NCBI GenBank assembly: GCA_902580765.1
Contig: CACHLW010000004.1
Location: forward strand, 19,888-83,887
Direction: 5' to 3'
Source: an uncultured Alphaproteobacteria bacterium
Lineage (GTDB): Bacteria > Pseudomonadota > Alphaproteobacteria > HIMB59 > GCA-002718135
DNA length: 64,000 nucleotides
Shown here: in pieces, positions 721 to 32,018 of the stretch
How positions within the stretch are numbered: the stretch's first letter is position 1
How the letters are laid out: the number at the start of each line of letters is the position of its first letter
Translations under genes and position numbers: made by a program
Notes under the pieces: model-generated
Told to the model about the DNA's origin: nothing
The model's input: the letters and a program-made list of their open reading frames with translations, nothing else
Databases searched by the model: none

Positions 721-748
721 ATAAAATAATTAGGAGACAAGAATAATT

Positions 749-788: not shown

Positions 789-806
789 ATTATTTATTGA
801 GTTAAA

Positions 807-4548: not shown

Positions 4549-4555
4549 TAAAGAT

Positions 4556-8057: not shown

Positions 8058-8175
8058 CTTTTTCCTTATTAAAGATTGAGTATATGAAATTATCGATAAA
8101 TCAAAGAATATTTCTTACACAATAAAGAAATATCATAGGAAAAATTGTAGCAGTGGTATAGAGAGAATAGCAAAT

Positions 8176-9075: not shown

Positions 9076-9098
9076 TTAGAAAATAAATTTTAGCTCGA

Positions 9099-9956: not shown

Positions 9957-9963
9957 TTTTTGA

Positions 9964-10731: not shown

Positions 10732-10744
10732 TTGATCTGATTAT

Positions 10745-11404: not shown

Positions 11405-11422
11405 AAGATTAGAAATTTATTA

Positions 11423-12304
11423 TTAACCTTTTACTGCTCCAGCAGTTAAACCACTTATTAATTGTCTTTGGAAAAACATGATTATCATAAAAAGTGGCGC
11501 AGTTGCTGAAACAACACTTGAGACGGCCCACATATAATTTCCACTATGTTCAATTGTGCCCAAATAAGCATTAATTTTAGGAACCATAGTATAATTCTGC
11601 TGATTTAAAAGAAGTGAAGTAACTGTAAAATCATTATAGGCTAACATCATACTGAATAAACCTGCTGTAACAACTCCAGGCCACATAACAGGCATTATAA
11701 CAAAGCGAAACGCTTGAAAATATGAACAGCCATCAATTAGTGCACTTTCATCTAACTCTTTAGGAACTGTTTTAAAGAAGGAATAAAGTAACCATAATGT
11801 AAAGGGTTGATTGATTGCAACTAAAACAATTATGGTAGTTGGAAGTATGCCCCAAACGTTCAATTGGAAGAAAGGAAACAGATAACCAGAAACTAATGTA
11901 ATGTGTGGCATCGCTCTAAAAATCAAGGCAGCTATTAAAATCCAAAAAGTATATTTGTATGTCGATCTAGATAAGGCATAAGCACCTAATGTTCCTAAAA
12001 ATAAAGAGATCGTAACAACTGAAACAGTGATAATAATTGTATTCATTGTTGCTTTCCAAAATTCACCTTCAGTCCAAGACTCTACATATGCCTTAACTGT
12101 AGAAGTATCTCCTGTTTCTATCAAAGTATTAACTCCTGTGACTGCAAACATCCAATCAGCTCTTGAGAAAAAGTCGGCTTTTACTTTAAATGATCCCCAA
12201 AAAGTCCATATAAAAGGAAACACAGAAATAATTAACCAAGCAAGAATAAAAAAACTATTTATTAAAATTAGTTGTTTTGAGTATCTGTTAATTTTTGATT
12301 CCAT
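11423..12304 (-). CDS. ABC transporter permease, CUT1 (MalG-like) type
   Basis: 293 aa multi-TM protein with an EAA-like loop (ELDESALIDGCSYFQAFRFVIMP). Confidence 0.85.
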   Translation of the reverse strand: MESKINRYSKQLILINSFFILAWLIISVFPFIWTFWGSFKVKADFFSRADWMFAVTGVNTLIETGDTSTVKAYVESWTEGEFWKATMNTIIITVSVVTISLFLGTLGAYALSRSTYKYTFWILIAALIFRAMPHITLVSGYLFPFFQLNVWGILPTTIIVLVAINQPFTLWLLYSFFKTVPKELDESALIDGCSYFQAFRFVIMPVMWPGVVTAGLFSMMLAYNDFTVTSLLLNQQNYTMVPKINAYLGTIEHSGNYMWAVSSVVSATAPLFMIIMFFQRQLISGLTAGAVKG

Positions 12305-12305
12305 A

Positions 12306-13334
12306 TTATCTTTCTGTCCTAAATTCTCTCCATGTTCTTATAAGTACTGGTGTTAATAGAATTGCTACACCAATAATAGTTAACATAGAAGTTGCTCCTG
12401 CAGACCCAAATAACATTTTGTTTTCACTTCTTAAGTCGTTATAAATCATCCAAGAAAGTGATTGAGCAACACCTTCAGCAGCGAACCCAATTATTGGCTC
12501 AAGAACCCTAAAATTATCCATTAGACAAATTAATATAATAAATGTTGCTACCGGATAAAGATGTGGAATAACAATGTGTCTGACTCTTTCATATCTTGAG
12601 GCGCCATCTATGATCGCTGCTTCAATTGGATCTTGAGGAACAGTTTGTAATGCAGCATAAAAGACAACAAAAGCAAATGGTGTATTGTGCCAGATCCCAT
12701 AAATAATCAGAGTAATCCAAGTCAATTGACTTGAAGACTTTAGAGATAGATTTGGATCATCAAATAAGAATTGAATGAATGAACCTAATATTCCTTTAGC
12801 ATCTATCATCCAAAATAAAACGAGAGACCCAATCAATGGTGTTACAATCATAGGCAGTATAACACCAAAAATGGTTGGGCCTTTTAAGCTTTTTGTAATT
12901 GTATTTACACTTAAAGCAACAATGAAACCTAAAACTACAACTGGTGGCGTAACTGCAAAACAAAATGTAAGTGTAAATAAAAGTGCTTTGTAAAAAGGTA
13001 AATTTAGTAAGATATCTGTAAACTCAGCTATAGATGAGGAATTAGTCCAAGCCTCTTTAATTTCATCAAAAGCTAAATGATTTCTATCGCCGTATGTTCC
13101 TAAACCATTAAATCTTCCAAGAGGTTGTTCTTCTTGTAATTTTGTAGTGGCCTCAATATCTACTTTAGTTTCAGTTTTACATCCAAATGGATCGCATTTT
13201 TCTACTTCCATTAAAATTTGTTCAGGTTCAATGTGAAGAGATTGAAAAAAACTTGAAATAATTGGAAGGCCAATAAATAATAGCATTGCCAATCCACTTG
13301 GAAAGAAGAACCAAAAAAATGTTCTGTGGGGCAT
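12306..13334 (-). CDS. ABC transporter permease, CUT1 (MalF-like) type
   Basis: 342 aa multi-TM protein with an EAA-like loop (PIEAAIIDGASRYERVRHIVIP). Confidence 0.85.
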   Translation of the reverse strand: MPHRTFFWFFFPSGLAMLLFIGLPIISSFFQSLHIEPEQILMEVEKCDPFGCKTETKVDIEATTKLQEEQPLGRFNGLGTYGDRNHLAFDEIKEAWTNSSSIAEFTDILLNLPFYKALLFTLTFCFAVTPPVVVLGFIVALSVNTITKSLKGPTIFGVILPMIVTPLIGSLVLFWMIDAKGILGSFIQFLFDDPNLSLKSSSQLTWITLIIYGIWHNTPFAFVVFYAALQTVPQDPIEAAIIDGASRYERVRHIVIPHLYPVATFIILICLMDNFRVLEPIIGFAAEGVAQSLSWMIYNDLRSENKMLFGSAGATSMLTIIGVAILLTPVLIRTWREFRTER

Positions 13335-13346
13335 CTATTTCTTGCT

Positions 13347-13380
13347 AAAAAAAAAGTGGAACATAATAATGTTCCACTTT
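13347..13380 (-). terminator. Hairpin plus T-run between the SBP gene and the permease genes (attenuator or terminator)
   Basis: On the minus strand: AAAGTGGAACAT-TATT-ATGTTCCACTTT followed by TTTTTTTTT. Confidence 0.7.
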
Positions 13381-13400
13381 ATCATAAATAATTATACGGT

Positions 13401-14636
13401 TTATAGAAAACCTTGCTCAGTAGCTTTTGCTACATAAGCAGCTTCTACATCCGCTAATGCTTTTTCAGCAGACTCATTTCCTTGAAGGAATTCAACAAGT
13501 TCTGTACTCAAAGCACCATGTAATAGACTCATGTATGGTAAGCTTGGATAAGGTGTTGCACCTCTGTTAGCAGCATCAACAACTGGTCCTGCTGTATCTC
13601 CAGGCGAATAACCATCAATCAACCAAATTGTTGCATTTGGATTAGCATTTGCCATTTCTGTTGAAGTTGCTGCACCTAAAAGAGCTCTAAAAGATGCTTC
13701 TGCATTTTCATCAGAAGTATTTGTTGCAATTCCAAATCCATCCCACCATAGAGTTGTTGCTGGTTTACTTCCACCACCTACAGATGGAGAAGGAGCTAAT
13801 CTAGTATCAGCTTTAATTGCTTGATCACCTTCATCATCTAACAATGAAGCTGCACCTGAATTCCAGATATGCATTAAAGCTACATTACCAGACTCCCATT
13901 CTTCTTTAACTGCATTTGTATCTTGAGTTAAGAAATCAGGGTTACTTACTTCTGTTAATCTTTTAAGCATGTTAAGAGCAGCTACACCTTTAGCGTTATT
14001 TACACTAACTTCAGCTGTTCCAGCTTTAAAGAAATCACCTCCATGACCAAGGTACATATTTACGAACTCTTGACCTAGGTTCCATCCAGATTTAAAAGCA
14101 CCAGCATATGGGTTAGCCATTTTACCAGAAGCTTTAATTTTTTCTGCAGCTGCAATTACTTCTTCATATGTTGAAGGAACTGCGATACCTAGATCATTAA
14201 GAATACTTTCTCTGTACCAAAGATGCTGAGCATTAGCCATGAATGCTATTGCATAGATCTTTCCATCAATCACGATTTTTTGATTGTCTTGTAATGCACT
14301 TCCGTATTTAGCAACTAAATCATCAAGTGGACGAATTAAGTTATCATTCATTAAAGTTGTAATTGAACCATTAGTTACAAGTTTAGCAGAGAATTCAGCT
14401 GGGTTAGCTGATAGGGCTGCAACTTGTAATTTATTATGATCAACGGAATGAGTGACAGAAAAATCTGCACTAGGTCCTGCACAACTTTTTACTTCATCCA
14501 TGAAAATTCTGTATGTTGTAAATTCGTTTGCTAGAATCTTTATTGATCCATCTGTTACTCCACAAGGTGAATGCCCGCCGGCATATGCACTTGTGCTAAC
14601 AAATGTGAACAATAGAGCTATTAATAGTTTTTTCAT
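13401..14636 (-). CDS. ABC transporter periplasmic substrate-binding protein, family 1 (sugar/polyol type)
   Basis: Signal peptide MKKLLIALLFTFVSTSAYA, 411 aa, first gene of the operon with the two CUT1 permeases. Confidence 0.8.
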   Translation of the reverse strand: MKKLLIALLFTFVSTSAYAGGHSPCGVTDGSIKILANEFTTYRIFMDEVKSCAGPSADFSVTHSVDHNKLQVAALSANPAEFSAKLVTNGSITTLMNDNLIRPLDDLVAKYGSALQDNQKIVIDGKIYAIAFMANAQHLWYRESILNDLGIAVPSTYEEVIAAAEKIKASGKMANPYAGAFKSGWNLGQEFVNMYLGHGGDFFKAGTAEVSVNNAKGVAALNMLKRLTEVSNPDFLTQDTNAVKEEWESGNVALMHIWNSGAASLLDDEGDQAIKADTRLAPSPSVGGGSKPATTLWWDGFGIATNTSDENAEASFRALLGAATSTEMANANPNATIWLIDGYSPGDTAGPVVDAANRGATPYPSLPYMSLLHGALSTELVEFLQGNESAEKALADVEAAYVAKATEQGFL

Positions 14637-18433: not shown

Positions 18434-19561
18434 TTAGATAACTTTTGATGCAAGTTTAGTACCCTCAACTAATGCATGAAGCTTTTCATAACAAATTTTT
18501 TCATCGATTTTTCCAAAACCAGCAAATGTACTAAAACCACAATCTGTCCCTGCCATTAATTGATCTTTTGGAATGACTGTAGAAAACTGAATTAATCTAT
18601 CTGCAACAACTTCTGGATGTTCAACAAAATTAGAGGTTGAGTCGATTACCCCAGGTACTAAGACTTTATCTTTTGGTAACTTTATATCTTGAAAAACTTT
18701 CCATTCATGTGCGTGCCTAGGATTAGAAGATTCAATGAGAAAGTATTTTACCTTTGATTTCAAAATTATAGGTAATATTTTCTCTAGAGCAATATCGTGT
18801 GTGTGGGGTCCTTCATAATTGCCCCAACATATATGCATTCTAGTTTGTTCAACATCTACATTAGATAATGCTGAGTTTAGGCATTCAATTTGTAGTTCTG
18901 CACGTTTAATAAACTCATCTTCAGATAAATTTTTAAAATTCATATGTCTTGCTAAAGCAAGGTCTGGGCAATCTAATTGAACTTGGATATCTGATTTTGT
19001 TATTAGCTCATATTCTTTAGCCATAATATTAGATAATTTATCCAAATATTCATCTTCGGTACTATAAAATTTATTTGGCATAAAAACATTTATGACGCCA
19101 GGTGATGCTGAGTTCATAAATGCATGTCGGTGATTAAGTTTATCAAGTGAATTTTTAAAATTATTTATATCCTGTAGAAGAGACGTTTCATCTTTTACTT
19201 TTAATTCGTTTGTACAACATGGTCTGGTATAAGTTGGCGTGCCACCACTTTTAGCAATCTTTTCTTTGTATTCTGGAAAATCATCAAGATCAGCAGGTGC
19301 TCTTCTTTCGCTTTCACCTGAGAACCCATCAATTCTGTCTTTAATATATGTAGCGTAGCTAATTTTACTCATCTCCCCATCACTGACAAAATCAATTCCA
19401 ACATCAAGTTGACTCTTAACAACACTTTCCACGTTATTTTTTAATACTTCATCAAAACTACTTTGACTAAATTTCTCTCCTTTATCTTTTGCAAATAAAA
19501 ATTCTGAAAGTTCTTTTGATCTAGGAAGGCTTCCAACATGTGTTGTTAAAATATTAGACAT
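18434..19561 (-). CDS. MetE-fold (cobalamin-independent methionine synthase II family, catalytic domain only) protein
   Basis: MSNILTTHVGSLPRS, FVSDGEMSK, MHICWGNYEGPH and AGTDCGFS (zinc-ligand positions), 375 aa. Confidence 0.75.
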   Translation of the reverse strand: MSNILTTHVGSLPRSKELSEFLFAKDKGEKFSQSSFDEVLKNNVESVVKSQLDVGIDFVSDGEMSKISYATYIKDRIDGFSGESERRAPADLDDFPEYKEKIAKSGGTPTYTRPCCTNELKVKDETSLLQDINNFKNSLDKLNHRHAFMNSASPGVINVFMPNKFYSTEDEYLDKLSNIMAKEYELITKSDIQVQLDCPDLALARHMNFKNLSEDEFIKRAELQIECLNSALSNVDVEQTRMHICWGNYEGPHTHDIALEKILPIILKSKVKYFLIESSNPRHAHEWKVFQDIKLPKDKVLVPGVIDSTSNFVEHPEVVADRLIQFSTVIPKDQLMAGTDCGFSTFAGFGKIDEKICYEKLHALVEGTKLASKVI

Positions 19562-19565
19562 TAAA

Positions 19566-20558
19566 TTAACCTGTTTTTAATAAAATCTGTTTCCAGATCA
19601 TAGTTTCATCATAGAGAACCCATTCATTTTTAATACCTCTTTCTCCAAATTCAACATGATTAATACCCATTATATAAATTTTCGAATTAGAGGCTTTCCC
19701 GAAAAGACCATCCTCTTCATGTTTACCTACCATAGACCATCGAACTGAAGCTTTTTTAGGTTCATATTTTTCTTCTGTAAAAGCAATGTGCTCAACTGAG
19801 AACAATGCGTTAGGAAAAGCATCTCTTAATTGTTTCCAAAATTTTATTACCTCATCTCTACCATAGTGAGTATTTCCCCCTGGTTGAAATTGCTGTATAG
19901 CTCTGTCATAACTATCATTTATTGTTTTCTCTAAATTGATGTTCATAATAGAGGTTAAGATATTTGCATATAATTCTCCAATGTTACCAGATGCTAAAAT
20001 AGGAGATTTATAAATTGATTTAACAGGTGTATTTTCATCAAAAGGTTTACTAGCTTTTTCATGACCACCCTCATCTTTAATAAGATTGCTTGCAAATTTC
20101 TTGGGGTCAATTCCAATTTGTCTCACAATTGCTCCTTGATCTCTCACAAGCCACTCATCATAAACTTGATTATTCATGCATGCACAATCAGCGATAGTTC
20201 GGTAATATAGTTTTTTTCCTGTTGCTTTCCCATACATCCCATCAACAGAATGAGTAGAGGTTGATAAAATGCGATGCGATGAAAAATATCCCTCATCATC
20301 ATTTCCTGTCCAAATTACATCTTCACCTAAAAGTGTTCTATCGGGAAATAGTTTTTTACTAGCATAGGTATTTTCAATTACTGGGTCTGCACCATAAATT
20401 ACTCCAGATGGAGATCTTGTAGGTGTGGGGAGGCTTACATTTGGAGTATCAGCATAATAATCTCTTATTGCTTCAACATCGTTTTTTTCCCAAATTTGAT
20501 ATGTAATCTTTAAAATATAATCAGGAAAATCTTTGAATTGTGCATCAAATCCTTTCAT
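19566..20558 (-). CDS. Fused double NTF2/SnoaL-like protein, type A (copy 2)
   Basis: 330 aa paralog of 16182-17321 (see that entry). Confidence 0.7.
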   Translation of the reverse strand: MKGFDAQFKDFPDYILKITYQIWEKNDVEAIRDYYADTPNVSLPTPTRSPSGVIYGADPVIENTYASKKLFPDRTLLGEDVIWTGNDDEGYFSSHRILSTSTHSVDGMYGKATGKKLYYRTIADCACMNNQVYDEWLVRDQGAIVRQIGIDPKKFASNLIKDEGGHEKASKPFDENTPVKSIYKSPILASGNIGELYANILTSIMNINLEKTINDSYDRAIQQFQPGGNTHYGRDEVIKFWKQLRDAFPNALFSVEHIAFTEEKYEPKKASVRWSMVGKHEEDGLFGKASNSKIYIMGINHVEFGERGIKNEWVLYDETMIWKQILLKTG

Positions 20559-20569
20559 ATAATTAATTT

Positions 20570-21541
20570 TTAATTAGTTTGTCGTATTATAAATAAATTA
20601 CCATCATGATCACTTATCTGTCTTATTGAACGAAGTGAATTTTTGGGAACAGAAAAAGTATCTTTTTCTTTAATTACAACTTTGTCTCCATCACAATCTA
20701 TTTCCCATTCACCAGATAAACAATGATACACTTCTGATTTCTCCAGCTTGTATTCATGTATATGAGCACTCTTGCCGTTGAGAAGTGAAAGGCTAAAACC
20801 TGTTGCATGTGGTATTTTAGGAGCAAAAGATTTATCATGAATTTTAAACTGATCAATGTAGTTGATAATTTTATTGGATTGATAGTGGTCATCATCGACA
20901 AAATATTTATCTTTATCATTAAATCGAATAACAAACTTTTCTATGTCTTCTGAAGAGTAATGATCGAAATTCTCTAATTCATTATCTTCTAGTGGCTGAA
21001 TAATTTTAGTTTCATCTGTTATTTTCTGTTTCTCTGTGTCGATTAAAGAATTATCATTCATTAATACCATGCCAGATTCTTTTGCATCTTTTAAAAGTTT
21101 AGGTGTCCAAGTAATAACACCTGGATCATTTTCACCTAACACAACAAACATTAAAGCTTCTTCATCACTTACATTTTGAAAACCTCTGAACATGTTTGTG
21201 GGAAAAGAAGCGATGTCACCTTTATTTAGTATTACTTCTCCTTCAGTGCCATCAACACCCCAATAAAAACGCCAGGCACCTGAGTGAATTATAAAAACTT
21301 CTGCTGTTGTGTGACTATGTAATCCAGAACCATTCATCGGCGCAGCACTAACAGCACCAATATTAAAGCCATGTTCTTCAGCTATTTTAACATTTTGTTT
21401 AGCATCTTCACTTACACCAGGTCCTATAACTGAATAATTTTTCCTATCTTGATGACCTTTTAGTTTTCCCTCAACAAATGGTATATTACTAGGAATAAGT
21501 TCATCGAATTTTGCTAATCTAGATGTAATATTAATTGACAT
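20570..21541 (-). CDS. Bicupin protein (N-terminal metal-binding cupin)
   Basis: GSGLHSHTTAEVFIIHSG fits the cupin motif G-x5-H-x-H-x3,4-E-x6-G. A second beta-barrel-like half (HIHEYKLEKSEVYHCLSGEW) is less canonical. Confidence 0.65.
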   Translation of the reverse strand: MSINITSRLAKFDELIPSNIPFVEGKLKGHQDRKNYSVIGPGVSEDAKQNVKIAEEHGFNIGAVSAAPMNGSGLHSHTTAEVFIIHSGAWRFYWGVDGTEGEVILNKGDIASFPTNMFRGFQNVSDEEALMFVVLGENDPGVITWTPKLLKDAKESGMVLMNDNSLIDTEKQKITDETKIIQPLEDNELENFDHYSSEDIEKFVIRFNDKDKYFVDDDHYQSNKIINYIDQFKIHDKSFAPKIPHATGFSLSLLNGKSAHIHEYKLEKSEVYHCLSGEWEIDCDGDKVVIKEKDTFSVPKNSLRSIRQISDHDGNLFIIRQTN

Positions 21542-21556
21542 ATTGTAATGATCTTT

Positions 21557-21575
21557 TATTCATTTTTTTTGAATA
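21557..21575. promoter_or_regulatory. Inverted repeat TATTCA-N7-TGAATA (copy 3)
   Basis: TATTCATTTTTTTTGAATA, 15 nt upstream of the bicupin ATG. Confidence 0.45.
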
Positions 21576-21576
21576 T

Positions 21577-21594
21577 TATTCAAAATAATGAATA
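21577..21594. promoter_or_regulatory. Inverted repeat TATTCA-N6-TGAATA (copy 4)
   Basis: TATTCAAAATAATGAATA, adjacent to copy 3 and 38 nt upstream of the type B2 ATG. Confidence 0.5.
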
Positions 21595-21632
21595 AATCAA
21601 TTATTATTTAACAATAGTTTTATTAAATTATT

Positions 21633-22730
21633 ATGGCAAATAAAATACAAAACTTTGATACAGGTGAGAAAGATAACTCAAACATAATTCATTTAGATCT
21701 TGATCCAAAGATAAATATTGAAAACAAAATATATTTTAAAAATTTATTAAAAAAAATTGCCGAGTGCTCTTTAGATAATTTAGAAGAAAATCTTGAAAAT
21801 TTATATCACGTAGATGCTGAGTTTAATGGATTTCATCCAATTAATGAAATTAAAGGTATTGAAGAAATAAAAAATAAATATTTAATACCTCTAAAGAAGG
21901 CATTCCCCGACCTCGAAAGAAGAAATAATCTAGTTATTGGAGGATCATTTAGAGATAAAGTTTTTGTTTCATTTATTAGTCATTTAACTGGAACTTTTAA
22001 AAATGAGTGGTTGGGCGTAAAGCCGACTAACAAAACAATTTATCTTAGAACATGTGAAGCACATCAGATTACAAATAATAAAATAATAAAATCCTATACA
22101 TTAATTGATACTGTAGATTTTATCCGTCAGGCTGGATATTGGCCTATAAATAAATCTCTTGGGGTAGAAGGGATGTGGCCTAGTCCAATCACAGGTGATG
22201 GAGAAAATAATCAAAATTTAGATAAGGAACTGTCTCTTCAATCTTTGAATCAAGATTTAACCATGCAAAGAAGTTTAAATATTAAACCTGAGACTGAGGA
22301 AGGTCTATCAAAAGATCAAATAAGGGAGAAATTAATTAATCATCCTCAACAAGATTATTGGCACCCAAAAATGATGTGGTATGGGCCAAGTGGTATAGGT
22401 ACAGCTAGAGGTTTAGATGGTTTTGTTGATCATCATCAGCTCCCATTTAGACTTACATTCAAGGACAGAGATTATTGGAAAATCGGTCATTATATTGAAA
22501 TTGGAGATGGAAATTATTCTATGACTGGTGGTTGGCATAGTATTCAATGTGTTCATGGATCAAGTGATTGGCTAGGATATGAACCTACTCAAAAAAAAAT
22601 AACAATGAGAGTCATGGATTTTTATTTACATCACGAAGGGTTAATTAGAGAAAATTGGGTACCAATCGATATAGCACACATATTAGATCAAATAGGCATT
22701 GATATCTTTAAATTAATTCATAAAAAATAA
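21633..22730 (+). CDS. Fused double NTF2/SnoaL-like protein, type B (copy 2)
   Basis: 365 aa paralog of 17429-18433. Confidence 0.7.
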   Translation: MANKIQNFDTGEKDNSNIIHLDLDPKINIENKIYFKNLLKKIAECSLDNLEENLENLYHVDAEFNGFHPINEIKGIEEIKNKYLIPLKKAFPDLERRNNLVIGGSFRDKVFVSFISHLTGTFKNEWLGVKPTNKTIYLRTCEAHQITNNKIIKSYTLIDTVDFIRQAGYWPINKSLGVEGMWPSPITGDGENNQNLDKELSLQSLNQDLTMQRSLNIKPETEEGLSKDQIREKLINHPQQDYWHPKMMWYGPSGIGTARGLDGFVDHHQLPFRLTFKDRDYWKIGHYIEIGDGNYSMTGGWHSIQCVHGSSDWLGYEPTQKKITMRVMDFYLHHEGLIRENWVPIDIAHILDQIGIDIFKLIHKK

Positions 22731-22732
22731 TT

Positions 22733-24052
22733 ATGGCAATAGAATATTTAAAAAAAGGTTTAGACGAAAAACAAAGAATTGAAGATAATGATAAAGTAAA
22801 AAAAATTGTTGAGGAAACGTTAAGTACAATTGAATCAGAAGGCGATAAACATATTAGAGAGTTATCTCAAAAATTTGATAACTATTCTCCAGATAGTTTT
22901 AGATTAAGTGAAGATCAAATTAATCAATTAATGAATGAAGTCTCTGATGATGACAAAGAAGATATTAAATTTGCTCAAAAACAAGTGCGATCATTTGCAG
23001 AAGCACAACTTAAAACTTTAAGTGAATTAGAAGTAGAAACGCATCCAGGTGTGATACTTGGTCATAAAAATATACCAGTACAAGCAGTAGGATGTTATGT
23101 ACCTGCCGGAAAATTCCCAATGGTAGCTTCTGCTCATATGTCAGTTGTTACTGCCTCTGTTGCTGGGGTTCCAAGAATTGTTGCTACTACCCCACCTTTT
23201 AAAGGTAAGCCAAATCCAGCTGTCGTTACAGCAATGAAAATGGGTGGTGCTCACGAAATTTATGTTTTGGGAGGAATGCAAGGAGTTGGTGCTATGGCTA
23301 TTGGTACAGAAACTATTAAACCTGTAGATATGCTTGTTGGACCTGGCAATGCATTTGTTGCTGAAGCGAAAAGACAATTGTATGGCAAAGTTGGTATCGA
23401 TTTATTTGCTGGTCCAACTGAAACAATGGTAATTGCAGATGAAACTGTTGATGGTGAAATATGTGCAACAGACTTATTAGGACAAGCTGAACATGGATAT
23501 AATTCTCCTGCTGTGATGATAACAAACTCAAGAAAACTTGCAGAAGAAACATTTAAAGAAATTGATAGAATTTTAGAAATTTTACCTACTAAAGAAACAG
23601 CAAGCACAAGCTGGAGAGATTATGGAGAAATAATTTTATGTGATACTTATGAGGAGATGTTATCTAAAGCAAATGAAATAGCTTCAGAGCATGTTCAAGT
23701 TATGACAAAAAAAGATGATTGGTTTTTAGAAAATATGACATCTTATGGTGCTCTATTTTTGGGCGCTAGAACTAATGTTGCTAATGGTGATAAAGTTATA
23801 GGCACTAACCATACTCTTCCTACTAAAAAAGCTGGTAGATATACTGGTGGTTTGTGGGTTGGTAAGTTCATTAAAACCCATACTTATCAAAAGATTATGA
23901 CAGATGAAGCTGCAACTCTCATCGGAGAATATGGATCTAGACTTTCACATTTAGAAGGTTTTATAGGTCATGCAGAACAATGTAATGTGAGAGTAAGACG
24001 ATATGGAAAAAAAAATGTTGGATATGGAAAACCAGCAGGAGAAAAAATTTAG
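22733..24052 (+). CDS. Histidinol dehydrogenase family protein (HisD paralog; HpsN-like candidate)
   Basis: 439 aa with LLGQAEHG and typical HisD-fold segments (GPGNAFVAEAKR). It lies in a catabolic operon rather than a his operon, 2 nt after the type B2 gene. Confidence 0.75.
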   Translation: MAIEYLKKGLDEKQRIEDNDKVKKIVEETLSTIESEGDKHIRELSQKFDNYSPDSFRLSEDQINQLMNEVSDDDKEDIKFAQKQVRSFAEAQLKTLSELEVETHPGVILGHKNIPVQAVGCYVPAGKFPMVASAHMSVVTASVAGVPRIVATTPPFKGKPNPAVVTAMKMGGAHEIYVLGGMQGVGAMAIGTETIKPVDMLVGPGNAFVAEAKRQLYGKVGIDLFAGPTETMVIADETVDGEICATDLLGQAEHGYNSPAVMITNSRKLAEETFKEIDRILEILPTKETASTSWRDYGEIILCDTYEEMLSKANEIASEHVQVMTKKDDWFLENMTSYGALFLGARTNVANGDKVIGTNHTLPTKKAGRYTGGLWVGKFIKTHTYQKIMTDEAATLIGEYGSRLSHLEGFIGHAEQCNVRVRRYGKKNVGYGKPAGEKI

Positions 24053-24053
24053 C

Positions 24054-24449
24054 TTATTTTAATTCCCCTTTAACTCTCATTTCATTTCTAATTTTTGTTG
24101 CCGAGATATCATGTATTTCTTTTCCTAAATCATGTTCTGTAAATGAATAACCAACTCCTCTTCCATAAGAAATATCAATAATGTTTGGAACCTTAACAAC
24201 TACATATTCTTTGCCATCAGTAAAACCATGTTGAGCTAAACCTTCATTAATTTTTGCTTTTACTTCTTCAAATTGAAATGGATTGTCAGCTTGACCTTCT
24301 ACACCTGCATCTACACCTCCCACGTCACGATACATAATACATACCTGACCTGTTTTCTGAAGTGCTCTTTTAAATAATTCTGTATGTCCGTCATGCCATG
24401 GTTGCCATCTACCTAACATTTGTACTGTTGGTTTTTTCCAATCAAACAT
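24054..24449 (-). CDS. Small cytidylyltransferase-like (HxGH nucleotidyltransferase) protein
   Basis: 131 aa. GRWQPWHDGH matches the G-x-F-x-P-x-H-x-G-H signature of the nucleotidylyl-transferase superfamily. It overlaps the upstream kinase gene by 8 nt. Confidence 0.55.
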   Translation of the reverse strand: MFDWKKPTVQMLGRWQPWHDGHTELFKRALQKTGQVCIMYRDVGGVDAGVEGQADNPFQFEEVKAKINEGLAQHGFTDGKEYVVVKVPNIIDISYGRGVGYSFTEHDLGKEIHDISATKIRNEMRVKGELK

Positions 24450-24855
24450 TTTTAATCTCCTTTGCTAGATTTTCTATTTCTTCATCTGATAAAAATTTAG
24501 TTATTTTAATGTCAGTTTTATTTGGTTGTTCAAACATTTTATTTGTATCTTCAAACCTACCTTCTTTAATAGTATCCAGCCAGATAACAAAATCAGGCTC
24601 AAAAGCTTCTCTTGCTTTTTCAGTTGGTGCTACGAAGTCACAAATTACCCATCTTCCATTTTGTTTTTCGAAATCGGCAAATGTTTTCATTCTATTGGCT
24701 TGTCGTATTCTACCTTCCATCGTAAAATCCCAATCGTTTGCTGACTTCCTGACTACATCTGCGTTATACCAAGCACAATTATCAATAACTTTAATAAGCC
24801 TTTCTGCTAACCAAGTTTTGCCAGCACCAGGAAGACCACAAATAAGTATTTTCAT
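24442..24855 (-). CDS. P-loop kinase, adenylylsulfate (APS) kinase-like, short form
   Basis: 137 aa. P-loop GLPGAGKT. NADVVRKSANDWDF...RIRQANRM...ICDFVAP resembles the APS kinase core (LDGDNVR..L..DLGF...R.ENIRR...ISFISP, from memory). Confidence 0.55.
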   Translation of the reverse strand: MKILICGLPGAGKTWLAERLIKVIDNCAWYNADVVRKSANDWDFTMEGRIRQANRMKTFADFEKQNGRWVICDFVAPTEKAREAFEPDFVIWLDTIKEGRFEDTNKMFEQPNKTDIKITKFLSDEEIENLAKEIKNV

Positions 24856-24866
24856 ATAATTATAAT

Positions 24867-25658
24867 TTATATTTTAGCGATAAAATTAGGGTTAATAACA
24901 CTTTCTTTCGTGTTGTATAGTAATATATTTTTATTAAAATCTTTAACTGAACCTCCTGCCTCTTCAAGAATAATATGTCCCGCAGCAATATCCCATTCTG
25001 AAGTTGGACCTAGTCTTGGATAGATATTTGCCTTACTTTCAGCTAAGTAACAAAATTTAAGAGAACTTCCAATTTGGATTAACTCAAAATTATTACAATT
25101 ATCATTTATCCAATTATCAAAATCTTTATTAGAATGTGATCGACTACCAATAACCTTTGTTAAATTACTTTTGTCTTTTACTGAATTTATTTTTATAAAA
25201 TCTTTAGTTGTTTCAATATTTGACTCTGTAATTAATTTATATGCGCCATTGTTTTTTAAAGCATAATAAAGCAAAGACTTAGCAGGCGCATATATAATAC
25301 CAAATATTGGTGAATTATTTTTTATTAATGCAATGTTAACTGTAAATTCTCCATTTTTTTTAATAAATTCTTTAGTTCCATCTAATGGATCTATTAACCA
25401 ATATGAATTCCAAGTTTTTCTTTCTTTCCATTCTATTAGACTTTCTTCACTTAATATAGGAACATTAGGGCTAAAAGATTTTAATCTATTTAAAATTAAA
25501 TTATTTGATTTTATATCAGCTTCGGTAATAGGTGAATTATCATCTTTTATTTCTACATTAAAAGATTTTTTATATACTTTTTGAACTTCCTTACCTGCAT
25601 CTATAGCAGTATTTAATATTTTTAATAAATTTTTTGATTTATGTAATTCTAAGTTCAT
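24867..25658 (-). CDS. cysQ: 3'(2'),5'-bisphosphate nucleotidase (inositol monophosphatase family)
   Basis: WLIDPLDGTKEF and WDIAAGHIILEEAGG motifs, 263 aa. Confidence 0.8.
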   Translation of the reverse strand: MNLELHKSKNLLKILNTAIDAGKEVQKVYKKSFNVEIKDDNSPITEADIKSNNLILNRLKSFSPNVPILSEESLIEWKERKTWNSYWLIDPLDGTKEFIKKNGEFTVNIALIKNNSPIFGIIYAPAKSLLYYALKNNGAYKLITESNIETTKDFIKINSVKDKSNLTKVIGSRSHSNKDFDNWINDNCNNFELIQIGSSLKFCYLAESKANIYPRLGPTSEWDIAAGHIILEEAGGSVKDFNKNILLYNTKESVINPNFIAKI

Positions 25659-25692
25659 GATTCTTTTAACAGAATTTTTTTATTAATTAAAA

Positions 25693-26604
25693 TTATATAT
25701 AAATGAAATACATATATCCAAAATACAAAGTTAATCCAATAATTCCATAAATACGTCCAATTTTTTTTGCAAAAATCATAAACATTAAAATTAATGCTGT
25801 AATTGATAACATGAAGTATAAGTCTTGATTTGCTAAAACTGCAGGAACTTTAAAATTACCAAAAAATGAACTAATACCTAGAACACCTAATACATTATAA
25901 ATATTAGACCCCAGAATATTTCCTAAAGCAAAATCAATTTTTTTTCTAAAGGCAGAAACAATACCAACTGCAAGTTCTGGAAGGGAAGTTCCAAAAGCTA
26001 CTAATGATAATCCAATTACTGAAGCTGGAACATTATAAGTTCTTGCAATATTAATTGCTGAATCAACAAGTAAATCTGCACCAAATACTAAACATGCTAT
26101 ACCTATTATAATTAATATTAATGAGATTGTTATTGAATAATCGTTTTTGTCTATTTCTAAATTATCAATTTCTCCTTTTTTTATTTGAATATACATTAGA
26201 TAAATCAATGATGTAGTTGCAACTAATCCAAAAATAAAATTAAAATAAAAAAAAGTCATAATTATTAATACAATTCCTAAAATAATATTTATCCAAGCTT
26301 GGTTAATTTGATTTTTATTTATATTTACAATTGGAAAAATTAATGTTGTGGTGGCCATTACAAGTATCAAGTTTGCAATATTACTCCCAACTACAGCGCC
26401 TAAAGCAAGATCCGAAAAATCATTAAGAACAGCATTAATGCTACTTGCTAATTCAGGTAATGATGTTCCTCCAGCTACAATTACAACACCAATTGCAAAC
26501 AATGAGATATTAATCTTTCTTCCAAAACTAACTGAACCTCTTATAATTATTTCAGCACCTAAAACTAAAAGCCCTAATCCAATTATCGAAAATAAAATAT
26601 CCAT
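25693..26604 (-). CDS. Ca2+/Na+ antiporter family (CaCA, YrbG-like) membrane protein
   Basis: Two GTSLPEL alpha-repeat motifs (GGTSLPELASS, FGTSLPELAVG), 303 aa, multi-TM. Confidence 0.8.
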   Translation of the reverse strand: MDILFSIIGLGLLVLGAEIIIRGSVSFGRKINISLFAIGVVIVAGGTSLPELASSINAVLNDFSDLALGAVVGSNIANLILVMATTTLIFPIVNINKNQINQAWINIILGIVLIIMTFFYFNFIFGLVATTSLIYLMYIQIKKGEIDNLEIDKNDYSITISLILIIIGIACLVFGADLLVDSAINIARTYNVPASVIGLSLVAFGTSLPELAVGIVSAFRKKIDFALGNILGSNIYNVLGVLGISSFFGNFKVPAVLANQDLYFMLSITALILMFMIFAKKIGRIYGIIGLTLYFGYMYFIYI

Positions 26605-26678
26605 TGAAAATTTTTAATTATTTAAGTTAGTTATATGTTTAAATTAAATAGTATATAATAAATAAATTTTTCTAAATT

Positions 26679-28283
26679 ATGAACCAAAGTTTTGACTATA
26701 TTATTATTGGTGCAGGTACAGCTGGTTGCATATTAGCAAATAGACTTTCAGAGAATGAAAACATTAAAGTACTTTTGATTGAAGCTGGAGGAAAAGATAC
26801 TAATCCTTGGATACATATTCCGGGTGGTTATTTTAAAACAATGCATAATCCTAAAACTGATTGGTGTTTCACAACTGAAGAGGAAAAATTTTGTAATAAT
26901 AGAAAAATGCTTATTCCAAGAGGAAAAACATTGGGTGGAAGTTCATCAATTAATGGGATGTTATATATAAGAGGTCATGCAAATGACTACAATTACTGGA
27001 GACAATTAGGTAATATTGGATGGTCTTGGGAAGACGTATTACCTTACTTTAAAAAATCTGAAGATTACAGAATTTCTAAAAGTGAATTTCATGGTACCAA
27101 TGGACCCATCAAAGTAGAGAAAATTAGATCAAATTTTAAATTATTGGATTTATTTTTAGAGGCCTCTCAAGAATTTGGATACAAAAAAAATGAAGACTTT
27201 AACAATGGTGACAATGAAGGAATGGGTTATTTTCCAATGACAATTGATAAAGGGTATAGATGTAGTGCTGCAGTTGCTTTCTTGAATCCTATAAAAAATA
27301 GAAAAAATTTAAAAATTATAACCAAGGCACATGTTAAAAAATTAACAATTGAAAATTTAAAAGTAAAAACTGTAAATTTATGGAAAAATAATGAAGAATT
27401 TTCATATTCTGTAAATAAAGAAGTTTTATTGTCAGCAGGAACGATTGGATCTCCTCACATATTACAAGCTTCAGGTATTGGTCCAGGTAAATTATTAAAT
27501 GAAAATAATATTAATATTGTAAAAGAAATTAAAGGTGTTGGAAAAAATTTAACCGATCATTTAATGTTAAGACCAGTTTACAAAATTAAAAACTTAGAAA
27601 CATTAAATGATATATATCACAGTTTTACTAAAAAATTTTTAACAGGATTAAATTATTTAATTTATAAAAAAGGACCTTTAACAGTTGGAGCAAGTTACTT
27701 GTGCGGCTTTATTAAAAGTGATTCGTATTTAGAAAACCCAAATCTACAATTTCATATCTCACCAGCTAGCACTGATTTATTAGGAAAAGCAGATCTACAT
27801 AAATTTCCAGCATTCACTCCTACAATAACAAATATACAACCTACGAGTAGAGGCTCTGTAGAAATTAAATCTTCAGATACAAGAATTTATCCTCAAATAA
27901 AAATGAACTATTTATCTACTGATGAAGATAGGGAAATTGCAGGAAAATCAATTAAAATTGTAAGAAAAATAGTTTTAGAATCAAAAGCATATAAAAATTA
28001 TGAACCAGAAGAATATAGACCGGGAATACAATTTAAAGATAATCAATCTCTAGCAAAAGAAGCGGGTAAATTTGCAAACACTATTTTTCATCCAGTAAGT
28101 ACCTGTAAAATGGGTAATGATGAAAACTCAGTTGTAAGTGATAATCTTAAAGTAAAAGGAATAAACAACTTAAGAGTTGTTGATGCATCTGTGATGCCAA
28201 CTATAACTTCAGGTAATACTAATGCCCCTACTATGATGATTGCTGAAAAAGCATCAGACTTAATTATTAACGATCAGAAATAA
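26679..28283 (+). CDS. GMC-family FAD oxidoreductase (choline dehydrogenase-like)
   Basis: DYIIIGAGTAGCILANRLSE, GGSSSINGM and the C-terminal HPVSTCKMG, 534 aa. Confidence 0.85.
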   Translation: MNQSFDYIIIGAGTAGCILANRLSENENIKVLLIEAGGKDTNPWIHIPGGYFKTMHNPKTDWCFTTEEEKFCNNRKMLIPRGKTLGGSSSINGMLYIRGHANDYNYWRQLGNIGWSWEDVLPYFKKSEDYRISKSEFHGTNGPIKVEKIRSNFKLLDLFLEASQEFGYKKNEDFNNGDNEGMGYFPMTIDKGYRCSAAVAFLNPIKNRKNLKIITKAHVKKLTIENLKVKTVNLWKNNEEFSYSVNKEVLLSAGTIGSPHILQASGIGPGKLLNENNINIVKEIKGVGKNLTDHLMLRPVYKIKNLETLNDIYHSFTKKFLTGLNYLIYKKGPLTVGASYLCGFIKSDSYLENPNLQFHISPASTDLLGKADLHKFPAFTPTITNIQPTSRGSVEIKSSDTRIYPQIKMNYLSTDEDREIAGKSIKIVRKIVLESKAYKNYEPEEYRPGIQFKDNQSLAKEAGKFANTIFHPVSTCKMGNDENSVVSDNLKVKGINNLRVVDASVMPTITSGNTNAPTMMIAEKASDLIINDQK

Positions 28284-30053
28284 TTATTGAACTACTGTAT
28301 CTTTTGGATCAATTCCAGCAACTTCAACTGGGGCCTTCATAGCATCTCGTCTAAAAGGTTCTCCTAGTTCTTGATTTAACATAACTTCTATGAAAGTAGT
28401 TATACCTTCCATTTGATCCTTGCAAGATTGTTGCAAAGCTTCTGTTAGTTCCTCTTGAGTATGAACCTTGACACCTTTAAATCCGCACGCTTCTGCGATC
28501 TTTGCATAGCTTAATTTAGGATCAAGTTCTGTTCCAACAAAATTATTATTATACCAGAGTGTAGTGTTTCTTTTCTCCGCTCCCCATTGATAATTTCTAA
28601 AAATTATCATTGTAATATTTGGCCAACCTTCTCTATTACAAGAAGTCATCTCACTCATACTAATTCCAAATGCGCCGTCACCTGCAAAGCCAACAACTGG
28701 TGTATTAGGACAACCAATCTTTGCTCCAATTACAGATGGAAAACCATATCCACATGGCCCAAATAAACCAGGTGCCAAATACTTTCTACCATTATCAAAT
28801 GTTGGATAAGCGTTACCAATTGCACAATTATTTCCTATATCACTTGATATAATTGCATCTTCAGGAAGACCTGCTTGAATAGCTCGCCATGCCATTCTTG
28901 GTGACATTTTTTCTGGTTCTCTATCTCGTGAATCTTTATTCCAAGATGTGCCAGGATCATCTTCTTCATGATCAAGGCCAGTTAATGTTTGAAGCCAAGC
29001 TGACTTTGTCTTATGAATTAACTCCTCTCGTTCTTTTCTATCTTTATCACCTGCATTTGTTGTAAGGTTTTCTAAAATTTGTTCAGCAACTAGTTTTGCA
29101 TCTCCACAAATACCAACACTTATTTTTTTTGTTAAACCAATACGATCAGAATTGATATCAACTTGAATGACATCAGCATTTTTTGGCCAATAATCTATTC
29201 CATAACCTGGTAAAGTTGAGAAGGGGTTTAATCTTGTGCCAAGTGCTAAAACTACATCTGCTTTAGATATTATTTCCATTGCTGCTTTAGATCCGTTGTA
29301 TCCTAAGGGACCAACTGCAAGAGGATGTTTGCCAGGAAAACTATCATTGTGTTGGTATCCGCAAGCAACTGGAGCACTTAATTTTTCTGCAAGTTTTTTG
29401 CAATCATTAATAGCATCAGCTAAAATCACTCCAGCACCAGATAAAATGACTGGGAATTTTGCATTAGATAAAAGATAAGCAGCTTCTTTAATTGCCTCTA
29501 TTCCACCTGAAGGTCTTTCAAATTTAATTATAGGTGGCAGATCAATATCAACAACTTGAGTCCAAAAATCTCTTGGTATATTTAATTGAGCAGGAGCAGA
29601 TCCTTTAATAGCTTTTGAAATAACTCGATTTAAAACTTCTGCAACTCTGGAAGGATCTCTTACTTCTTCTTGATAACATACCATATCTTTAAATAAGTTC
29701 ATTTGCTCGACTTCTTGAAAACCTCCTTGACCAATAGTTTTATTGGCTGCTTGAGGGGTAACCAAGAGCATTGGAGTATGATTCCAAAAAGCAGTTTTTA
29801 TAGGTGTAACCAAGCCAGTTATACCAGGTCCATTTTGCGCAATACACATTGCAATTTTACCAGTAGATCTTGTGTAGCCATCAGCCATAATTCCACCGTT
29901 TGACTCATGAGCAACATCCCAAAATGTTATACCAGCTTTAGGAAATAGATCTGATATTGGCATAAACGCTGATCCAATTATTCCAAAAGCGTGTTGAATA
30001 CCGTGTTTTTGTAAAACTTTTACAAAAGCTTCTTCTGTTGTCATTTTTGCCAT
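28284..30053 (-). CDS. xsc: Sulfoacetaldehyde acetyltransferase (ThDP-dependent)
   Basis: 589 aa. The N-terminus MAKMTTEEAFVKVLQKHGIQHAFGIIGSAFMPISDLFPKAGITFWD is very close to what I remember of characterised Xsc. ThDP motif GDGAFG. Confidence 0.8.
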   Translation of the reverse strand: MAKMTTEEAFVKVLQKHGIQHAFGIIGSAFMPISDLFPKAGITFWDVAHESNGGIMADGYTRSTGKIAMCIAQNGPGITGLVTPIKTAFWNHTPMLLVTPQAANKTIGQGGFQEVEQMNLFKDMVCYQEEVRDPSRVAEVLNRVISKAIKGSAPAQLNIPRDFWTQVVDIDLPPIIKFERPSGGIEAIKEAAYLLSNAKFPVILSGAGVILADAINDCKKLAEKLSAPVACGYQHNDSFPGKHPLAVGPLGYNGSKAAMEIISKADVVLALGTRLNPFSTLPGYGIDYWPKNADVIQVDINSDRIGLTKKISVGICGDAKLVAEQILENLTTNAGDKDRKEREELIHKTKSAWLQTLTGLDHEEDDPGTSWNKDSRDREPEKMSPRMAWRAIQAGLPEDAIISSDIGNNCAIGNAYPTFDNGRKYLAPGLFGPCGYGFPSVIGAKIGCPNTPVVGFAGDGAFGISMSEMTSCNREGWPNITMIIFRNYQWGAEKRNTTLWYNNNFVGTELDPKLSYAKIAEACGFKGVKVHTQEELTEALQQSCKDQMEGITTFIEVMLNQELGEPFRRDAMKAPVEVAGIDPKDTVVQ

Positions 30054-30185
30054 AATAATCCCTTAATATATTATTCTTAGCTACATTAAATTAATTTTTA
30101 AATGAACTACAATAATCTTGTTAGTTATTTATTAATTTTATAAAATTCCTATTTAATGAAAAAATAATTATTTACGATTGATAAA

Positions 30186-32018
30186 ATGACGCTTCTTGGA
30201 CAAGAGATTATTAAGGCTACATCTAAAACTTTGCCTAACCAACCTGGTGTATACCAGATGCAAGATGAAAATGGTAACATTCTATATATTGGAAAAGCAA
30301 AAGTATTATCCAATAGAGTAAAGAATTATCTATCTTTAAATAACCTAACCAGAAGAATTCAAAGAATGGTTAGTCTAACTAAATCAATGAACTTCTTTGT
30401 AACAAATACAGAGTTAGAAGCAATCATACTTGAATGTAATTTAATTAAGAAACATAAACCTCGATTTAATGTTCTATTAAGAGACGATAAATCATTCCCT
30501 TATATATTTATTTCATCTGAACATGATTTTCCTAGAATTGAAAAACATCGTGGCCCTCAAAAGAAAAAGGGTAGATATTACGGACCATTTGCAAGTCCAG
30601 ATGCTGTAAATAGAACTATTAATACAATACAACGAATATTTCTTTTAAGGTCATGCACGGATAAAGAGGTAAATGCAGGAAATAAATTGTGCTTCAATTA
30701 TTATCTTAAAAGATGTTCTGGTCCTTGCGGAGGAAAAATAACTAAAGAAGCCTATTCAAAATTAATAGAGGAAGCAGATGATTTTTTAAGTAGTGGCAAT
30801 TCTCAAAAAATACAAAAAAATTTTACAGATCAAATGTATAAGGCATCAAAAAAAAATAATTTTGAATTAGCAGCATCTTTAAGAGATAGACTTAAAGCTT
30901 TAAGACATATTGAACAAAATAATTCAATTAAGATTAAGGATATAAAAAATGCTGACATTTTTGCAATAACAACAAATGAAGGAAAAACATGTATTTATGG
31001 AAGTTTTTTTAGAAATAATACATCTTATGGTGGTAAAGCGTTCTATCCAGATCATGACAACTTATTGGATCACGAAGAAATAATGTTAGGTTTCCTAAAT
31101 ATATTTTATGCAGAAAAAGATATCCCTGAAACAATTATTACCAATATAGTTATTGATAAAGATAATAATTCACAAATTTTAGGAAAAAATTTTGATAAAA
31201 CAAAATTTATTAAACCATTAAAAGGACCTAAAAAAAATTTACTTAAATTTGCAGAAAAAAATTCTAAAATAAATTTAGATATCAAATTAAATAAACTTAA
31301 ATCTTTTGATAATTTTAATGAAGAAATTAAAAAAATATTCAAACTCAAAGATGAAATTATAAAAATAGAAGCTTACGATAATAGTCATACTTTTGGAAAA
31401 TATCCTATAGGTGTAATGGTTGCGTATAATCAAAATGGATTTATAAAATCAAATTATAGAAAATTTAATATTCGATTTGATCTTGAAGAAAACAAAAATA
31501 AAGTTGATGACTATTATATGATGAAAGAAATGCTTACTAGGAGATTTAGTAATTCAAAATTTCAAGACGAATTGGATTTGCCAAGTTTATTGCTTATAGA
31601 TGGAGGCAAAGGACAATATAATTCTGCAAAAAAAGTATTAGATAATTTAAAAATAGATATACCAATTATCTCTATGGCAAAAGGTGAGGAAAGAGATGCA
31701 GGAAGAGAAATTCTGATACATGATAAATTTACACATAGATTAAACGAAAATAATCCACTTCTTCACTTTTTACAAAATATTAGAGACGAAGTTCACAGAT
31801 TTGCAATAACAACACATCGTTCAAAAAGAGCAAAGATGAGCGTCAAATCTGTATTTGATGATATAGAAGGAGTAGGTCCTGAAAGAAAGAAAATTTTAAA
31901 AAAACACTTTGGTACAGTGGAAAATTTAAAATTAGCTAGTTTAGATGAATTAAAAGAGGTTAAATCTATACCTGAGTCAATTCTAACAAAAATTTATGAA
32001 TATTTTCATAGCGTTTAA
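30186..32018 (+). CDS. uvrC: Excinuclease ABC subunit C
   Basis: GIY-YIG N-terminus (GVYQMQDENGNILYIGKA), central UVR domain, C-terminal HhH, 610 aa. Confidence 0.95.
   Translation: MTLLGQEIIKATSKTLPNQPGVYQMQDENGNILYIGKAKVLSNRVKNYLSLNNLTRRIQRMVSLTKSMNFFVTNTELEAIILECNLIKKHKPRFNVLLRDDKSFPYIFISSEHDFPRIEKHRGPQKKKGRYYGPFASPDAVNRTINTIQRIFLLRSCTDKEVNAGNKLCFNYYLKRCSGPCGGKITKEAYSKLIEEADDFLSSGNSQKIQKNFTDQMYKASKKNNFELAASLRDRLKALRHIEQNNSIKIKDIKNADIFAITTNEGKTCIYGSFFRNNTSYGGKAFYPDHDNLLDHEEIMLGFLNIFYAEKDIPETIITNIVIDKDNNSQILGKNFDKTKFIKPLKGPKKNLLKFAEKNSKINLDIKLNKLKSFDNFNEEIKKIFKLKDEIIKIEAYDNSHTFGKYPIGVMVAYNQNGFIKSNYRKFNIRFDLEENKNKVDDYYMMKEMLTRRFSNSKFQDELDLPSLLLIDGGKGQYNSAKKVLDNLKIDIPIISMAKGEERDAGREILIHDKFTHRLNENNPLLHFLQNIRDEVHRFAITTHRSKRAKMSVKSVFDDIEGVGPERKKILKKHFGTVENLKLASLDELKEVKSIPESILTKIYEYFHSV

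Follow-up and report, generated by a model that had tools for sequence, protein, structure and literature searches.

A compact kinase–nucleotidyltransferase pair encoded beside cysQ is predicted to make PAPS in place of CysD and CysN-CysC in an uncultured alphaproteobacterium

The window analyzed here is a 64,000-nucleotide stretch of contig CACHLW010000004.1 (assembly GCA_902580765.1) from an uncultured alphaproteobacterium, and our subject is a set of three minus-strand genes within it. The first, cysQ (24,867–25,658; 263 amino acids, aa), encodes a 3′(2′),5′-bisphosphate nucleotidase that acts as a 3′-phosphoadenosine 5′-phosphate (PAP) phosphatase; the second, which we call K (24,442–24,855; 137 aa), encodes a short-lid P-loop kinase resembling adenosine 5′-phosphosulfate (APS) kinase; and the third, N (24,054–24,449; 131 aa), encodes a minimal HxGH/ISxTxxR nucleotidyltransferase. 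Chiefly on comparative-genomic evidence, we propose that the three probably constitute a compact route for the synthesis and recycling of 3′-phosphoadenosine 5′-phosphosulfate (PAPS), with N the putative ATP sulfurylase and K predicted to convert APS and ATP to PAPS. A PAPS-making role is the most likely one for the K-N pair because sister genomes hold cysD-cysNC in the same position. The pair (~268 aa) would then most likely do the job of CysD plus CysN-CysC (~930 aa) at one third of the size. The chemistry is known, and the enzymes proposed to perform it here are new; we found no paper describing the K-N pair or a minimal sulfurylase, and the AEGEAN-169 paper does not discuss sulfur.

As a first-pass annotation made from the sequence alone had described, all three open reading frames (ORFs) are present and tightly packed. 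K follows cysQ, the operon’s first gene, after 11 nt, and the end of K overlaps the start of N by 8 nt in ATGTTTGA. This junction (24,442–24,462, minus strand) comprises the K stop codon (TGA, 24,444–24,442), the N start codon (ATG, 24,449–24,447), and, 7 nt upstream of the N start, an AAGGAG ribosome-binding site (24,462–24,457); the overlap implies translational coupling. A promoter and terminator scan of 23,900–26,800 gave scores no better than those of shuffled sequence, and because no separate promoter or terminator stands out, we read cysQ, K, and N as one tight minus-strand operon. No signature of horizontal transfer was seen, the GC content being 33% in K and N versus 30% in the window. 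CysQ scores above the TIGR01331 equivalog cutoff (287.8 versus 228.8 bits, profile positions 4–249 of 250) and matches Pfam Inositol_P at 5.8e-52. K and N are genuine genes and not chance ORFs, because both have many homologs (5886 of similar length for K; 1047 representative clusters at E ≤ 1e-3 for N, either free-standing or C-terminal in proteins of ~260 aa) and confidently predicted folds (predicted local distance difference test, pLDDT, of 95 and 86, respectively).

After cysQ, the same position is filled either by the standard sulfate-activating genes or by K-N. In a congener, G059, the gene order is bicupin, SnoaL, HisD-like, cysNC, cysD, cysQ, Na/Ca exchanger, GMC, and xsc, and its CysNC and CysD exceed the NCBIfam cutoffs (895 versus 715 bits for NF004035 and 517 versus 413 bits for NF009214). 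By blastn, positions 19,007–24,036 of the window align with 201–5214 of the G059 locus (L156) at 82% identity, and positions 24,883–31,000 align with 8039–14,131 at 87% identity; identity between the two genomes is 98% for the HisD-like, GMC, and Xsc proteins. The sole break in collinearity, and the only part of 19,007–31,000 without an alignment to G059, is the segment 24,037–24,882, where 846 nt containing N and K stand against 2824 nt of cysNC and cysD. Compared with these 98%-identical flanks, CysQ and the Na/Ca exchanger (24,867–26,604) are 66% and 71% identical to their G059 counterparts, so the divergence extends beyond the two swapped genes. In G025, a complete genome from the order’s other family, cysQ likewise adjoins cysD-cysNC. 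CysD in this second family lies in frames of 486–507 aa (e.g., L157:5086–6546 of G025), with an N-terminal extension of ~180 aa outside the CysD models.

Across the order, which has two families in the genome collection, the two systems were counted in 81 genomes, namely the window’s own (66% complete) and 80 others that are at least 80% complete. The pair alone is present in 21 genomes, a strong CysD alone in 52, and neither in 8, and no genome has both; within the window’s genus (38 genomes), the corresponding counts are 14, 23, 1, and 0. Fisher tests on pair versus CysD return very small p-values, which, owing to kinship among the genomes, overstate the independent evidence. Among the genomes with neither, G073 (genus g5, 91% complete) has AprB, and no sulfotransferase was found in G022 (genus g1, 88% complete). 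Sat, the other known ATP sulfurylase, was found in 2 of these 81 and once more in a smaller sample of relatives. The Sat proteins of three pair-holders, G008 (L021), G065 (L160), and G072 (L161), are canonical (~340–350 aa, with PUA and ATP-sulfurylase domains), and their flanking genes have no Pfam match.

Sulfotransferases require PAPS. Sulfotransfer_1 proteins are encoded in 71 of the 81 genomes, whichever activation system is present, and the window’s genome (G000) encodes a full-length Sulfotransfer_1 protein of 275 aa on a different contig (C1:77038–77838). AprB was not found in the window’s genome or in 11 others (80–92% complete) that share the 137-aa type of K; these 12 pair-holders also have no CysD, and 11 of them have no Sat. 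In the genomes with this type of K and no AprB, N is the sole candidate source of APS. Ten genomes of the order do have AprB, nine of which carry the pair and none CysD. The first-pass annotation had described the lineage as one thought to lack sulfate assimilation. That background needs correcting, as sulfate activation is not absent throughout this lineage: close relatives carry CysD/CysNC, and the genome is not from Pelagibacteraceae, its nearest named records being single-cell genomes labeled ‘uncultured Alphaproteobacteria’.

K resembles APS kinases in sequence, fold, and active-site residues; it is nonetheless atypical for the family, and its activity is a prediction. Its P-loop reads GLPGAGKT. 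K scores 30.8 against the Pfam APS_kinase profile (PF01583; gathering threshold 21.1) over profile positions 5–91 of 152 only, about the first 60%, and lies below the NCBIfam cutoffs (21.2 versus 138.7 for TIGR00455; 29 versus 127 for NF004041). The top sequence match in the PDB is the APS kinase 2yvu, with an E-value of 3e-7 for K alone and 2.5e-12 with the family profile. The AlphaFold model of K likewise finds APS kinases as its top Foldseek matches (2pey, 3cr7, 4rfv, 4fxp, and 2yvu; template-modeling score, TMq, 0.77–0.85, with 2yvu at 0.85); gluconate and shikimate kinases come next, at similar E-values and lower TM. In the active site of Mycobacterium tuberculosis (Mtb) CysC, D480 is the catalytic base, R483 and R497 bind the phosphosulfate, and F492 stacks on the adenine (PMC4373884). 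K aligns D33, R36, R49, and F44 with these residues, respectively for D480, R483, R497, and F492, and among 33 members of the K family the first three are invariant and F44 is conserved in at least 90%. The full lid of Mtb CysC spans residues 552–581 and includes Arg559, Lys562, and Phe576 (PMC4373884). That of K is shortened to DTIKEGRFEDTNKMFEQP, about half the usual length, and in our own alignment its second half, F-x6-F-E-x-P, parallels FTGxxxxYExP.

Other forms of the K gene differ at the same site. Those adjoining aprM-aprB-aprA operons (L019:8663–9157, and in L078, L055, and L120) encode 164-aa proteins with an unrelated 27-residue insert at the shortened lid, after KEGR, which is absent from the cysQ-linked K and from the main Pelagibacteraceae forms. 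Methylocapsa aurea (L121, NZ_CBDIOS010000001.1) has a free-standing 169-aa K homolog with a motif, ISKDLGFS..., that is intermediate between canonical CysC and the K family; no N gene was seen within this locus.

N contains the motifs GRWQPWHDGH, DNPF, ISATKIR, and an invariant YGRxVGY (YGRGVGY in N itself), and its model adopts the HIGH nucleotidyltransferase fold. The VIA Z-scores are 10.1 for the NadM nicotinamide mononucleotide (NMN) adenylyltransferase (NMNAT) 2qjt, 9.7 for phosphopantetheine adenylyltransferase (PPAT), 9.2 for MJ0541 (1f9a), 8.2 for Thermus Sat (1v47; 118 residues aligned, root-mean-square deviation 3.5), and 5.7–6.2 for the yeast, soybean, and Allochromatium Sat structures. 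N falls slightly below the Pfam CTP_transf_like cutoff (19 versus 21), and no curated family takes it: in NCBIfam it is far under all NMNAT, PPAT, and FAD-synthase cutoffs (for the NMNAT models, 30.4 versus 127 for NF002243 and 24 versus 181.2 for TIGR01527), with matches to the NMNAT models spanning the first 70–90 residues only. Pfam finds no match to the Sat family (PF01747) in N. Sat structures have a QxRN sulfate-binding motif and a GRDHAG loop, and neither is found in N, which has GRWQP before HxGH and YGRGVGY instead of GRDHAG; the Sat sequences of related genomes do carry R-N-x-P-H and GRDHAG. As judged from sequence and model, the Sat-like fold and the HDGH/ISATKIR motifs signify superfamily membership only. 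N is a small and separate branch of the superfamily to which NMNAT, PPAT, and Sat belong, and its sequence and fold do not by themselves identify the substrate.

The closest known likeness is to the archaeal or NadM-type NMNATs (MJ0541 1f9a, 4yp7, and 2qjt), which share GRxQPxHxGH, NPF, and ISxTxxR with N at Z-scores of 9.2–10.1. Unlike them, N is 35–50 residues shorter than the 1f9a, 4yp7, and 2qjt chains and far below the family cutoffs, the invariant YGRxVGY takes the place of the stretch that links the PN(I) strand to ISAT, and the genomic partners of N concern sulfur and not NAD.

The partnership of K and N extends well beyond the window, the two being fused in numerous bacteria and phages. 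In PHROGs, the first half of phrog_10255, labeled only ‘kinase’, matches K and the second half matches N. Phage fusions of ~245 aa include Xylella phage Salvo gp32 and a protein of Stenotrophomonas phage DLP_6, fusions of 250–270 aa are common among metagenome proteins, and the fused gene is present on at least 372 viral contig stretches. The kinase is N-terminal and the adenylyltransferase C-terminal in the fusions, and where K and N are unlinked they still co-occur (5 of 5 genomes). A 273-aa sulfotransferase is the commonest immediate neighbor of the viral fusion (11 of 80 loci, plus L236) and often abuts it, and in a Bradyrhizobium metagenome-assembled genome the fusion is followed by a TPR-Sulfotransfer_3 gene. 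The records of phages Salvo and DLP_6 yielded no Sulfotransfer_1 match, and the neighbors there are uninformative. Some of the fused genes are found in polysaccharide clusters, alongside NeuB, GT2, and Wzy genes. Other recurrent neighbors in the viral loci L162–L241 are a radical-SAM-like protein, RCC1-repeat proteins, and a second small CTP_transf_like gene. In three Pelagibacteraceae single-cell genomes (L104, L110, and L112), an autotransporter gene of ~760 aa sits between K and N and splits the otherwise adjacent pair.

In cellular genomes, cysQ and aprM-aprB-aprA are recurrent associates of the pair across at least six genera and in Pelagibacteraceae single-cell genomes. The pair is also carried by a cultured Pelagibacter, isolate HIMB1838 (L087). 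Four arrangements recur: cysQ followed by the apr operon, with K-N divergent from the latter; K-N and the apr operon convergent; K adjoining apr, with N directly 3′ of cysQ elsewhere in the genome (G078, G079, and G098); and a K-N fusion followed by cysQ. In published SAR11 strain tables, ‘cysC’ is present exactly where aprA is present, and sat and cysDN are absent (PMC5069961; see also PMC12636525). The SAR86 neighbors of the pair, which are lipid and sugar genes, are uninformative on function. In the aprM-aprB-aprA operons of the window’s family and of Pelagibacteraceae, aprA is always followed by a conserved ORF of ~116–122 aa with no Pfam match (L019:5029–5397, minus strand; equivalents in L052–L058, L078–L082, L115, and L120). 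In two genera, a TauD/TfdA-family dioxygenase gene, which may represent another source of sulfite, stands right after the K-N fusion and cysQ and is convergent with cysQ (L059:5493–6335 and L060:7739–8581).

In the scheme that we propose, N would adenylylate sulfate (ATP + sulfate → APS + PPi), K would phosphorylate the 3′-OH of APS to give PAPS, the genome’s sulfotransferases would consume the PAPS, and CysQ would convert the by-product PAP to AMP. Coupling of N to K, through overlap here and fusion elsewhere, would pull the unfavorable sulfurylase step forward, much as in animal PAPS synthase. The purpose is likely sulfation and not sulfur assimilation. The first-pass annotation had suggested that a minimal adenylyltransferase, a 3′-kinase, and a PAP phosphatase could serve PAPS formation for sulfation, and the in situ swap, the mutual exclusion with CysD, and the sulfotransferases in the genome and beside viral fusions all lend support to that suggestion.

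The proposed system shares with CysD/CysN-CysC the operon slot after cysQ, the predicted net chemistry (sulfate → APS → PAPS), and the sulfotransferase users. The means would be different: CysD is an ATP pyrophosphatase of the PP-loop type and is powered by the GTPase CysN, the whole comprising ~930 aa, whereas N is an unrelated 131-aa HIGH-type Rossmann nucleotidyltransferase with no GTPase partner, and K has only the kinase core in common with the CysC domain. The PAPS synthases, that is, animal PAPSS1/2 and Sat–APS-kinase fusions such as that of Aquifex (2gks), resemble the K-N fusions in domain order and in the logic of coupling sulfurylase to kinase, and the K model matches the PAPSS1 kinase domain at a TMq of 0.77–0.80. 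In contrast to K-N, however, PAPSS has ~620 aa, of which the Sat domain (PF01747 plus PUA) takes up ~390 compared with 131 in N, and K is without most of the lid.

Several observations weigh against this proposal. The sulfurylase role of N, which we infer, is its weakest link: by sequence and fold the nearest relatives of N are NMN adenylyltransferases and not Sat, and an hhalign comparison of the N family with three Sat sequences from related genomes gave a probability of 1.4%, covering the HxxH turn only. In K, the LDGD motif reads YNAD, so that its first Asp (D478 in Mtb CysC, a ligand of Mg-bound water) is replaced by Asn31, and much of the APS-kinase lid is missing, including the region of Mtb CysC Lys562. 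Most Pelagibacteraceae have a 55%-identical pair with no link to sulfur, amid glycine-betaine and dimethylglycine catabolic genes (the neighbors being genes for a Rieske oxygenase, an M24 peptidase, an enoyl-CoA hydratase, dimethylglycine dehydrogenase, and electron-transfer flavoprotein). Three pair-holders also possess Sat. Finally, kinship among the genomes compared means that few independent events underlie the exclusivity, and many of these genomes, including the window’s own, are incomplete.

The observations on N bear most directly on an alternative that we regard as unlikely, in which K is a true APS kinase and N is not a sulfurylase, APS coming from AprBA or another enzyme and N transferring a nucleotidyl group to a related adenine nucleotide. 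Its appeal lies in the closer resemblance of N to NMNAT and PPAT than to Sat, and in the separability of the genes in G078, G079, and G098, where K accompanies aprMBA and N accompanies cysQ. It would, however, leave no source of APS for the 12 pair-holders without AprB and CysD (11 of them also without Sat), and K and N jointly replace exactly cysD and cysNC and are very commonly fused.

The association with aprM-aprB-aprA raises a different prospect, that the pair operates in a dissimilatory or detoxifying direction, with N as a reverse sulfurylase (APS + PPi → ATP + sulfate) completing the oxidation of the sulfite that Xsc and comparable enzymes release. Many Sat-less genomes have the pair beside aprM-aprB-aprA, 9 of the order’s 10 AprB-holders have the pair, the co-occurrence of ‘cysC’ with aprA where sat is absent in SAR11 strains (PMC5069961) fits, and xsc is found within the window at a distance of 2.6 kb. 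In the dissimilatory sat-aprMBA clusters of sulfur oxidizers such as Allochromatium vinosum (PMC3779200), sat has the position that K-N takes beside aprM-aprB-aprA in several lineages; unlike those clusters, the K-N loci have no Sat-family protein and have a kinase in addition, and no apr genes were found in the window’s genome. As the chief role of the pair, this direction is nevertheless very improbable, since AprB was found neither in the window’s genome nor in the 11 genomes of the same type, the kinase would be superfluous for a reverse route, and the slot is shared with cysD-cysNC of the assimilatory type. In Apr-bearing lineages it could well be a second role, with N perhaps acting in reverse as well, as the missing Sat; in the window’s genome it would not be the main role. 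The handling of APS or sulfite, which the first-pass annotation had also raised, has some support in other lineages, in which the pair lies beside aprMBA, and none in the window’s genome, where no AprB was found.

We also considered that the pair might make another 3′-phosphorylated nucleotide donor, by analogy with Campylobacter Cj1415–Cj1418, which yield cytidine diphosphate (CDP)-phosphoramidate 3′-phosphate. There, an APS-kinase homolog (Cj1415, cytidine diphosphoramidate kinase) acts on a sulfate-free nucleotide and, with Cj1416–1418, combines with a nucleotidyltransferase to give a 3′-phosphorylated nucleotide donor (PMC11800397), a logic shared with K-N, and the fusions within polysaccharide clusters (NeuB, GT2, and Wzy) would be in keeping with it. 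The Campylobacter system differs from K-N in its phosphoramidate substrate, in its other partners (no glutamine-kinase or amidohydrolase genes were seen near K-N), and in having no association with cysQ, sulfotransferases, or apr. These last are the recurring neighbors of K-N, which moreover replaces and excludes cysD-cysNC, and we judge such a donor to be highly improbable.

A role in NAD salvage, as a split analog of NadR with K as nicotinamide riboside kinase and N as NMN adenylyltransferase, seems to us extremely unlikely. The motifs that N shares with archaeal and NadM-type NMNATs, and NadM as its best fold match (Z 10.1), speak for it, and NAD salvage genes are known from phages. On the other side, N scores far below the NMNAT cutoffs (30 versus 127; 24 versus 181) and appears, in our own alignment, to be ~25 residues shorter than MJ0541 between the PN(I) strand and ISAT; K best matches APS kinases, with the APS-binding residues conserved; the genome has its own NadD, and no nad genes were seen in any neighborhood examined; and the exclusivity with CysD and the sulfotransferase, cysQ, and apr neighbors would be left unexplained. 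The nucleotide-salvage pair that the first-pass annotation had entertained as its alternative is accordingly disfavored, the best sequence and structure matches of K being APS kinases and N fitting no curated NMNAT model, and neither profile searches nor fold comparison placed K and N confidently in unrelated families. A CoA-type reading, with N as PPAT and K as a dephospho-CoA kinase analog, was rejected because the genome already encodes a canonical CoaD, along with NadD, RibF, and a small cytidylyltransferase.

Beyond PAPS synthesis by the cysQ-K-N operon of the window lies a broader reading, for and against which we find the case evenly balanced. N would be a third, unrecognized class of ATP sulfurylase (~130 aa, from an NMNAT-like ancestor, and GTPase-free), K-N would be the smallest known PAPS synthase, N in reverse would be the ‘missing Sat’ of Apr-bearing SAR11 and related plankton, and the phage fusions together with sulfotransferases would sulfate some target during infection. 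A GTPase-free PAPS synthase of ~260 aa would, if true, accomplish a thermodynamically difficult reaction in a new way and provide a useful part for engineered sulfation.

For the organisms themselves, the setting is a gap noted for some time in SAR11, in which AprBA and an annotated cysC are present and sat and cysDN absent (PMC5069961; PMC12636525). The small, overlooked gene beside the SAR11 ‘cysC’ could be the missing step, which bears on how the ocean’s dominant heterotrophs dispose of sulfite from organosulfonates; if N does run in reverse, it would complete the oxidation of sulfite to sulfate with a gain of ATP in some of the ocean’s most abundant bacteria. The pair would go entirely unnoticed in metagenome surveys that take sat or cysDN as the markers of sulfate activation. 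Its presence raises the question of whether ocean heterotrophs sulfate their cell surfaces or dissolved compounds. In viruses, the fused gene is present on hundreds of contigs, in many cases next to a sulfotransferase, which suggests that phage infection includes a sulfation step not yet studied.

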